Below, piece after piece: positions 39,659-40,321 of a stretch of 42,704 nt of DNA. The stretch comes from an uncultured Nitrososphaerota archaeon (GTDB lineage: Archaea; Thermoproteota; Methanomethylicia; Nezhaarchaeales; WYZ-LMO8). Every line of letters starts with the position of its first letter. Positions within the stretch are counted from its first letter, which is position 1. The notes under the pieces were generated by a model that was not told the origin of the DNA, searched no databases, and saw only the letters and a program-made list of their open reading frames with translations. The stretch covers positions 1 through 42,704 of the forward strand of contig CAZLVJ010000003.1 of the NCBI GenBank assembly GCA_964562935.1, in the 5' to 3' direction. The position numbers and the translations under genes were made by a program.

Positions 39659-40321
39659 ATGATGGAAATGTCCTCGCTTGACGCTTGGGTACCGGCGACG
39701 TATGTAGGGAGATTGGTGAAGGAGGGCAAGATAACAAGCATAGACGAGATCTTCGCCAACAACTTGACGATAAAGGAGCCGGAAATAGTCGATGCGCTAC
39801 TACCCGACTTAAAGCACGAAGTAATCGACGTGAAGATAGTTCAGAAGCAGACGGACATCGCCTAGCGAAGCGCTAGGCGACCGTAAGCTGGCGAGATCTC
39901 GAGGTTCAAAGTAGTGGTGGCTGTAGGCAACGAAGCGGGCTACGTCGGGTTGGGCTTCGCCAAGGCCAAGCAGATGAGGGAGGCCATAGACAAGGCGATA
40001 GTGGAGGCCAAGCTCAACATAATCCCTGTCAGGCTCGGTTGTGGGAGCTGGGAGTGCAGGTGCGGCAGGCCGCACAGCGTGCCGATAAGGACTTGGGGCA
40101 AGGCGGGGAGCGTGGAGATGACCCTAATACCAGCGCCTCGAGGAACGGGCTTAGTGGCTGGCGACACGGCCAAGATAGTGCTCAGGCTCGCCGGGGTCAA
40201 GGACGTCTGGACCCTCACCAAGGGCGAGACTAGGACCAAAGAGAACATGGCGAAGGCGGCCCTCGAAGCACTTAGGAATACGCTGGCCTTCAAGTCGGTG
40301 AAGGACTGGGCGAGAGCATGA
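39659..40321 (+). CDS. rps5p: Ribosomal protein uS5, spliced: join(39659..39856,39887..40321), 210 aa
   Basis: [59 protein letters not shown]; 30-nt insert carries in-frame TAG and TAA. Confidence 0.93.
39857..39886 (+). other. Putative BHB-type mRNA intron (30 nt) in uS5
   Basis: Exon helix CAG/CUG, central helix ACGG(39851-54)/CCGU(39881-84), bulges AC|A and AA|G, 10-bp intron stem UCGCCUAGCG/CGCUAGGCGA. Confidence 0.92.

Follow-up and report, generated by a model that had tools for sequence, protein, structure and literature searches.

The gene for ribosomal protein uS5 (rps5) of an uncultured hot-spring-type archaeon is interrupted by a 30-nt insert at positions 39857–39886 that is, with a probability of roughly 0.9 as judged from the sequence and its relatives, a spliced BHB intron. 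Positions refer to the window, the whole stretch of 42,704 nt of DNA that was analysed. To our knowledge, introns in archaeal protein-coding genes are regarded as almost non-existent. Because uS5 is essential and its gene is interrupted, ribosome building in this lineage would depend on the splicing of an mRNA by tRNA-splicing enzymes.

The interrupted uS5 gene

The interrupted gene lies on the plus strand within a row of ribosomal protein genes that has the usual order eL32-eL19-uL18-uS5-uL30. The features of the row are as follows.

38094–38513, plus strand: eL32, upstream operon gene; NCBIfam equivalog match above cut-off
38510–38956, plus strand: eL19, upstream operon gene; NCBIfam equivalog match above cut-off
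38958–39569, plus strand: uL18, upstream operon gene; NCBIfam equivalog match above cut-off
39659–39856, plus strand: uS5 (rps5) exon 1, ending in VQKQTD; from the ORF and its translation, Pfam, NF003125 and TIGR01020
39857–39886, plus strand: putative BHB intron of 30 nt; from sequence, fold, frame, homologous inserts, strict-BHB parse and covariation
39887–40321, plus strand: uS5 exon 2, from AGEISRFKV to the stop codon TGA at 40319–40321; from the ORF, its translation and Ribosomal_S5_C
40318–40791, plus strand: uL30, downstream operon gene; NCBIfam equivalog match above cut-off

The start codon of uS5 is ambiguous, with ATG at 39659, 39662 or 39668, and exon 2 shares 4 nt with the start of uL30. 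Counted in the frame that opens with the ATG at 39659, the insert contains TAG as codon 69 (39863) and TAA as codon 76 (39884), and the uS5 frame is the same before and after the 30 nt when the stops are translated as X; sequence and frame are exactly as the first-pass annotation of this DNA had described them. The read-through product translated in this manner matches both uS5 domains of Pfam, with the N-terminal Ribosomal_S5 domain at residues 51–125, across the junction, and Ribosomal_S5_C at residues 147–214. It exceeds the cut-offs of both TIGR01020 and the archaeal equivalog NF003125, and its residues 3–218 align with positions 3–208 of the 213-position NF003125 profile, so that about 10 residues are surplus.

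A single uS5 locus was found in the MAG to which the window belongs (1.14 Mb, 123 contigs, 69% complete). A check for an intact rps5 elsewhere, which the first-pass annotation had proposed, found none in this MAG or in near-complete relatives: G005 (95%), G009 (96%), G013 (98%), G331 (99%) and G356 (99%) contain the interrupted locus only. Since the MAG is 69% complete and in 123 contigs, the absence of a second copy is established in the near-complete relatives only.

The row of ribosomal protein genes is adjoined on the minus strand by an ArsR/Phr-like HTH regulator (40797–41351), whose matches lie below the equivalog cut-offs.

The insert and its flanks form a canonical BHB motif

According to the available text of PMC4090602, what the archaeal splicing endonuclease recognises is the BHB motif, in which a 4-bp helix has a 3-nt bulge at either end. 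The DNA around the insert can be read as a full hBHBh' motif with the following elements.

39848–39890, plus strand: full hBHBh' motif; from sequence, fold, covariation and strict-BHB parse
39848–39850 (CAG) and 39888–39890 (CTG), plus strand: helix h, exon with exon; from sequence
39851–39854 (ACGG) and 39881–39884 (CCGT), plus strand: central helix H of 4 bp, exon with intron; from sequence and fold
39855–39857 (ACA) and 39885–39887 (AAG), plus strand: the two bulges, 3 nt each; from sequence
39858–39867 and 39871–39880, plus strand: intron stem h' of 10 bp; from sequence and fold
39868–39870 (AAG), plus strand: hairpin loop; from sequence
After 39856 and after 39886, plus strand: predicted cuts, by the rule of cleavage between the second and third bulge residues

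The insert itself is thus made up of 1 nt of the 5' bulge, the 10-bp hairpin with its 3-nt loop, the intron side (CCGT) of the central helix and two nucleotides of the 3' bulge. In the minimum free energy (MFE) fold of positions 39840–39900 (−27.7 kcal/mol, z = −4.07), the central helix of 4 bp and the intron stem of 10 bp are both present, and none of 200 dinucleotide shuffles of this segment folded as well. The outer exon helix, which is merely 3 bp long, is formed in the MFE fold by AGC/GCU with a 2 × 2 internal loop, whereas the strict register has CAG/CUG with a 3-nt bulge. These two outer-helix pairings are near-equivalent, and conservation in relatives points to the strict BHB register, which was found in 32 of 32 distinct sequences. 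The canonical fold had been drawn in the first-pass annotation, and all of its elements were recovered at the same positions, with the MFE structure departing from it in the outer helix only.

The available text of PMC2738675 gives the cleavage rule for the cbf5 intron as cutting between the second and third bulge residues. The first-pass annotation had stated this rule for EndA, the archaeal tRNA-splicing endonuclease, together with cbf5 as the known case of an mRNA intron, and both points agree with what is available of PMC2738675 and PMC7714728. Applied in silico to the window, the rule joins QTD to AGE, the sequence that is found, allowing for D/E and A/S variants, in 37 of 37 intronless homologues, and the claim that a cut after the second nucleotide of each bulge restores uS5 holds at this level. 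Adjacent cut registers, read from the sequence, fail to restore the QTD-AGE junction.

Two other classes of insertion were considered and rejected. A group I or group II intron is excluded by the length of the insert, which is only 30 nt when the ribozyme core takes up hundreds of nucleotides, and by the lack of any Rfam match at the site; the sole gathering-level Rfam match in the window is a tRNA at 19803–19877. An intein or another translated in-frame insertion is incompatible with the two in-frame stops and with the lengths of the homologous inserts, 18 of 32 of which are not multiples of 3.

Inserts at the same site in related genomes

A comparison of rps5 among relatives, proposed at the outset as a check, revealed same-site inserts in 16 genomes and 27 metagenome contigs, and covarying stems in an alignment of 14 sequences. 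The genomes were sampled by protein searches, first of 61 related genomes and then of a 401-genome sample of the phylum, after which the DNA was read at the site, so that the 17 genome-derived inserts were found by protein similarity and not by pattern. At least 16 further genomes carry an insert of 19–34 nt at the identical uS5 codon boundary, and 19 other loci matched among the 61 genomes have none. One genome, G166, was left out, as a run of N splits its uS5 at the site. In the family of the window (f1), the insert is present in 9 of 9 other genomes, and a second family of the order Nezhaarchaeales (f3) contains it in 4 of 4; the sole genome of the third family of the order (f2), G010, has a uS5 gene without an insert. 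The 14 interrupted loci of the order, including that of the window, have inserts of 30, 30, 30, 30, 30, 29, 29, 28, 22, 29, 31, 34, 31 and 28 nt. Outside the class, all three genomes of two other Thermoproteota families are interrupted at the site, by 24 nt (G356), 23 nt (G331) and 19 nt (G311). Among the best 150 of 412 matches, an intron-bearing uS5 was found in at least 17 of the 401 sampled genomes of the phylum.

When metagenome contigs were scanned with a sequence pattern, 38 matches were obtained, of which 27 were uS5 genes with the intron and 11 were unrelated chance matches; the central helix of the metagenome sequences is not independent evidence, because the search pattern imposes ACGG...CCGTA. 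In 11 of the 17 genome-derived sequences and in 18 of the 32 distinct sequences overall, the length of the insert is not divisible by 3. With 11 of 17 lengths out of frame, read-through cannot yield uS5. The exons are otherwise intact and are 86–96% identical within the genus.

In a tree of the uS5 protein (38 rows), the intron-bearing genes fall into separate groups, which requires four gains or losses, at least three of them forced by well-supported branches; the tree is based on one short protein with midpoint rooting, and the direction of the changes is not claimed. The history of the putative intron is patchy, with gain and loss, like that of the cbf5 intron.

Covariation and coding constraint

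All 32 distinct sequences could be parsed as strict hBHBh' motifs, with four of four Watson–Crick pairs in the central helix, 3-nt bulges on both sides and no stem shorter than 5 bp. Pairing in the outer helix extends to three of three positions in 27 sequences and to two of three in the other 5. In an alignment of 14 sequences, 95.7% of the cells are paired and compensatory double changes are seen in 9 of 17 pairs. The observed pairing and covariation values were reached by 0 of 500 column shuffles, a statistic that overstates significance because the compared genomes are kin, and registers that were slid along the alignment pair at most 42.7% of the cells.

The covariation extends across the exon–intron boundary. 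In two genomes, ACGG/CCGT is replaced by ACAG/CTGT, and the Thr codon changes from ACG to ACA. Among the 17 intron-bearing genes, the third codon positions that pair are nearly fixed, with Gln CAG in 17 of 17, Thr ACG in 15 and the compensated ACA in 2, and Ala GCT in 15 of 17. The third position of the Asp codon lies in the unpaired bulge of the same genes and is GAC in 9 and GAT in 8. In 37 intronless genes, the Gln, Thr, Ala and Asp third positions at the site all vary. The pattern of pairing and codon usage is that which selection on RNA structure would be predicted to leave. The outer helix and one side of the central helix also encode protein, so that the structure and the codons constrain each other, and the 32 sequence variants provide comparative material on coexisting coding and RNA-structure constraints.

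Splicing enzymes and a proposed route

The MAG encodes two EndA paralogues, on contigs C5 and C11, each of which has an N-terminal and a catalytic domain, and it encodes RtcB on contig C19. When aligned to two-unit EndA models, one paralogue matches the first half and the other the second half, the layout expected for a two-subunit enzyme. In this respect the predicted enzyme resembles the hetero-oligomeric EndA of Crenarchaeota, which work on cbf5 has tied to pre-mRNA splicing (PMC2738675, available text).

In the route that we propose, ACGG of exon 1, which belongs to the Thr-Asp codons, would pair in the transcript with CCGU of the intron, which gives the central helix of 4 bp. The paired segment would lie between two 3-nt bulges on opposite strands and would be extended by the CAG/CUG exon helix on one side and by the 10-bp intron hairpin on the other. 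The two-subunit EndA would then cleave each bulge between its second and third nucleotides, and RtcB would ligate the exons to regain the frame QTD-AGE, while the 30-nt intron would probably be released and may circularise. Cleavage and ligation in vivo are the part of this scheme that we infer. The first-pass annotation held that the intron must be removed for uS5 to be made, and this stands on the in-frame stops, the variable lengths that are not multiples of 3, the covariation, the single locus and the presence of genes for EndA and RtcB, from which splicing is deduced. The uS5 intron is most likely constitutively spliced.

Other interrupted genes in the genome and its relatives

A scan of the 1.14-Mb genome for strict BHB motifs gave 13,002 matches, which a first ORF filter reduced to 751 and a compact-hairpin filter with ORF restoration to 36 candidates. 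Those that held up are the top three, with stems of 9–10 bp, namely the uS5 site and, outside the window but in the same MAG, sites in the genes of two initiation factors.

Contig C1 of the MAG (G000), 81090–81119 (locus L074, 4591–4620), minus strand: aIF5B insert of 30 nt; canonical BHB with a stop, in the G domain, predicted junction GAM-TQH
Contig C1 of the MAG (G000), 78668–78700 (locus L074, 2169–2201), minus strand: aIF2-gamma insert of 33 nt; canonical BHB with a stop, predicted junction GHE-MLM

Within the order, 15 of 15 genomes have a same-site insert in the aIF5B gene (29–33 nt), and so do 5 of 5 fetched relatives at the level of the class (22–33 nt). The data suggest that this insert is widespread in one large family of the class (f5) and not present in families f4, f6, f7 and f8. 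The aIF2-gamma insert is positioned between the DxxG motif region and MLMATML and is found in 10 of 10 genomes of f1, in which its length is 31–35 nt and its stems covary; it is absent from 4 of 4 genomes of f3 and from G010 (f2). Another candidate from the scan, at 23923–23944 of the window, was dismissed as a chance match, as it lies inside an intact 287-aa permease-like ORF (23700–24563) and three of the pairs in its central helix are G-U.

The cbf5 gene is split at GTL-DPK in 5 of 5 relatives checked (G013, G010, G356, G009 and G005; loci L165–L170), one of which is outside the class. A strict BHB motif is present in two of the five, with inserts of 19 and 22 nt, and the other three probably have relaxed BHB motifs. 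In the MAG of the window, the search for cbf5 gave weak partial matches below the cut-off only; given these matches and a completeness of 69%, the gene is probably unassembled there.

It is conceivable, though we regard it as doubtful, that Nezhaarchaeales and their relatives in Methanomethylicia carry, in core translation genes, a group of introns whose removal depends on EndA and RtcB; these would be the introns of uS5, aIF5B, aIF2-gamma, Cbf5 and possibly more that a strict scan would miss. If this were true, mRNA splicing in archaea would go beyond the lone curiosity of cbf5 and form a layer of gene expression across a whole lineage. Through such a layer, the output of the translation machinery could be coupled to the capacity for processing tRNA and rRNA; alternatively, the layer could stem from mobile BHB elements whose homing targets are conserved coding sites.

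A regulatory version of the splicing reading, with which it is compatible, is likewise tentative. It holds that uS5 output depends on the capacity of EndA and RtcB and that, together with those of aIF5B, aIF2-gamma and cbf5, the intron would link the making of the translation apparatus to the processing of tRNA and rRNA. The tie between ribosome biogenesis and tRNA-splicing activity that the first-pass annotation drew is, in any regulatory sense, of the same tentative kind. All four interrupted genes that were found function in translation or ribosome biogenesis, and in Haloferax the excision of a BHB intron that lies in the 5'UTR of a gene seems, in the available text of PMC7714728, to be important for the efficient expression of that gene. 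However, the patchy distribution, with its four changes on the uS5 tree, fits neutral or selfish gain and loss equally well; the uS5 intron is missing from G010, a member of the same order, and the aIF2-gamma intron from a whole sister family; and the genome scan is biased to long conserved ORFs.

Alternatives to splicing

Three readings do without splicing of the uS5 transcript. The best of them, although very improbable, is that uS5 is made in two parts, either because the BHB is cut and not rejoined or because the gene is simply split, so that a 68-aa N-terminal piece ending at the TAG at 39863 and a C-terminal piece assemble on the ribosome. Split protein genes occur in some archaea, the stop comes two codons into the insert and closes the frame of exon 1, and a GTG at 39914 opens a 135-aa ORF over most of exon 2. 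A start at 39914 would, however, lose the conserved AGEISRFKV, and a split protein would leave unexplained the exact BHB geometry, the covariation between exon and intron and the restoration of the universal QTD-AGE sequence; the presence of a gene for RtcB also speaks for rejoining.

Translational bypassing, in which the ribosome would hop over the hairpin as in gene 60 of phage T4 with no RNA splicing, has a still slighter chance of being correct. A stable hairpin directly behind a stop-proximal codon would suit it, and gap lengths that are not multiples of 3 would be tolerated. Bypassing of the gene 60 type requires matching take-off and landing codons, but here the take-off codon is GAC or GAT and the last three bases of the gap are TAA, TAG or TAC in each of the 32 sequences. 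The 3-nt bulges and the exon-paired 4-bp helix, which are the recognition motif of EndA, would moreover have no role in bypassing.

The third reading, which has a negligible probability, is that the insert arose as an artefact of assembly or sequencing or that the gene is a pseudogene in decay. The fragmented MAG and the palindromic insert, a type of sequence that artefacts can produce, might be invoked for it, but inserts of differing length and sequence at the identical site in independent assemblies (16 genomes and 27 metagenome contigs) mean that it is neither, and the pseudogene is further contradicted by exons that are intact and 86–96% identical within the genus and by the status of the locus as the sole uS5 gene of near-complete relatives.

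Relation to known introns

An intron in the cbf5 pre-mRNA of Crenarchaeota was reportedly described by Watanabe in 2002 and by Yoshinari in 2006. Like this intron, as far as the available literature on it goes, the uS5 intron has a BHB at its boundaries, where the cuts are predicted to fall between the second and third bulge residues; it occurs in hosts whose EndA is hetero-oligomeric, and its distribution is patchy, with gain and loss. It differs in its host gene and in its lineage, which comprises Nezhaarchaeales and two further families of Thermoproteota. The available text of Yokobori 2009 (PMC2738675) describes the BHB of most cbf5 introns as unconventional (relaxed), whereas the uS5 intron is strictly canonical in 32 of 32 sequences.

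The uS5 intron shares its motif with the BHB introns of archaeal tRNA and rRNA (PMC4090602, available text) and, in the proposed route, the same enzymes, and its length of 19–34 nt falls inside the range of 11–129 nt reported for tRNA introns. Unlike these introns it sits in an mRNA, and one strand of its central helix and its outer helix are coding sequence. A BHB intron in the 5'UTR of HVO_1309 of Haloferax volcanii is described in the available text of Schwarz 2020 (PMC7714728). Like the one predicted in uS5, it is a target of EndA in an mRNA and not in tRNA or rRNA, but it lies in an untranslated region, whereas the uS5 intron breaks the reading frame, so that no full-length protein could be made without splicing.

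In the HAC1/XBP1 system of eukaryotes, a protein endonuclease cuts an mRNA at paired stem-loops, and the exons are then joined by a tRNA ligase, which in animals is RtcB, with a change of frame. This splicing works in a manner like that proposed for uS5, with no homology claimed; its endonuclease, Ire1, and its motif are different, and it is a proven stress-regulated switch.

According to the available text of Schwarz 2020 (PMC7714728), the cbf5 mRNA contained the only additional BHB intron reported by then, and in its available portion a 2025 paper on EndA structure cites the cbf5 papers alone for mRNA introns. Our literature search found no report of an archaeal uS5, aIF5B or aIF2-gamma intron and no paper that combines Nezhaarchaeota with introns, and cbf5 was the sole archaeal coding-sequence intron that it found described; subscription journals and supplements were outside the search, so an earlier description is possible. 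The search therefore gave the same answer as the first-pass annotation, whose author knew of no uS5 intron. The uS5 intron appears to be an undescribed archaeal BHB pre-mRNA intron in a new host gene. Its lineage is far from Sulfolobales and Desulfurococcales, and at least two more mRNA introns, likewise undescribed, occur alongside it.

Implications of the interrupted genes

If the uS5 transcript is spliced as proposed, the known substrate range of EndA and RtcB is widened, and the two initiation-factor introns (aIF5B and aIF2-gamma) in the same genome would deepen the dependence on splicing. Splicing of mRNA by protein enzymes before eukaryotes can now be tested in the class Methanomethylicia, which includes recently cultured methanogens. 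The genes of uS5, aIF2-gamma and aIF5B are universal and occur in single copy. Gene callers would be expected to split or truncate them at the introns, and marker genes broken in this way may lower the completeness estimates of these lineages (69% here) and corrupt their marker alignments.

Intron candidates in tRNA genes

The splicing reading of uS5 also finds support in other predicted substrates of EndA in the genome, which are the two conserved mRNA introns described above and an intron in a tRNA gene of the window.

18393–18507, minus strand: tRNA-Leu(UAA) with a 29-nt intron beside the anticodon; detected by ARAGORN with the intron option only

This gene was missed by ARAGORN with default settings and by Rfam at gathering level. 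The intron option of ARAGORN also reported tRNAs with 'introns' of 268–1470 nt on contigs C16, C17, C51, C58 and C65, which may be false positives or may represent split or intron-rich tRNA genes.
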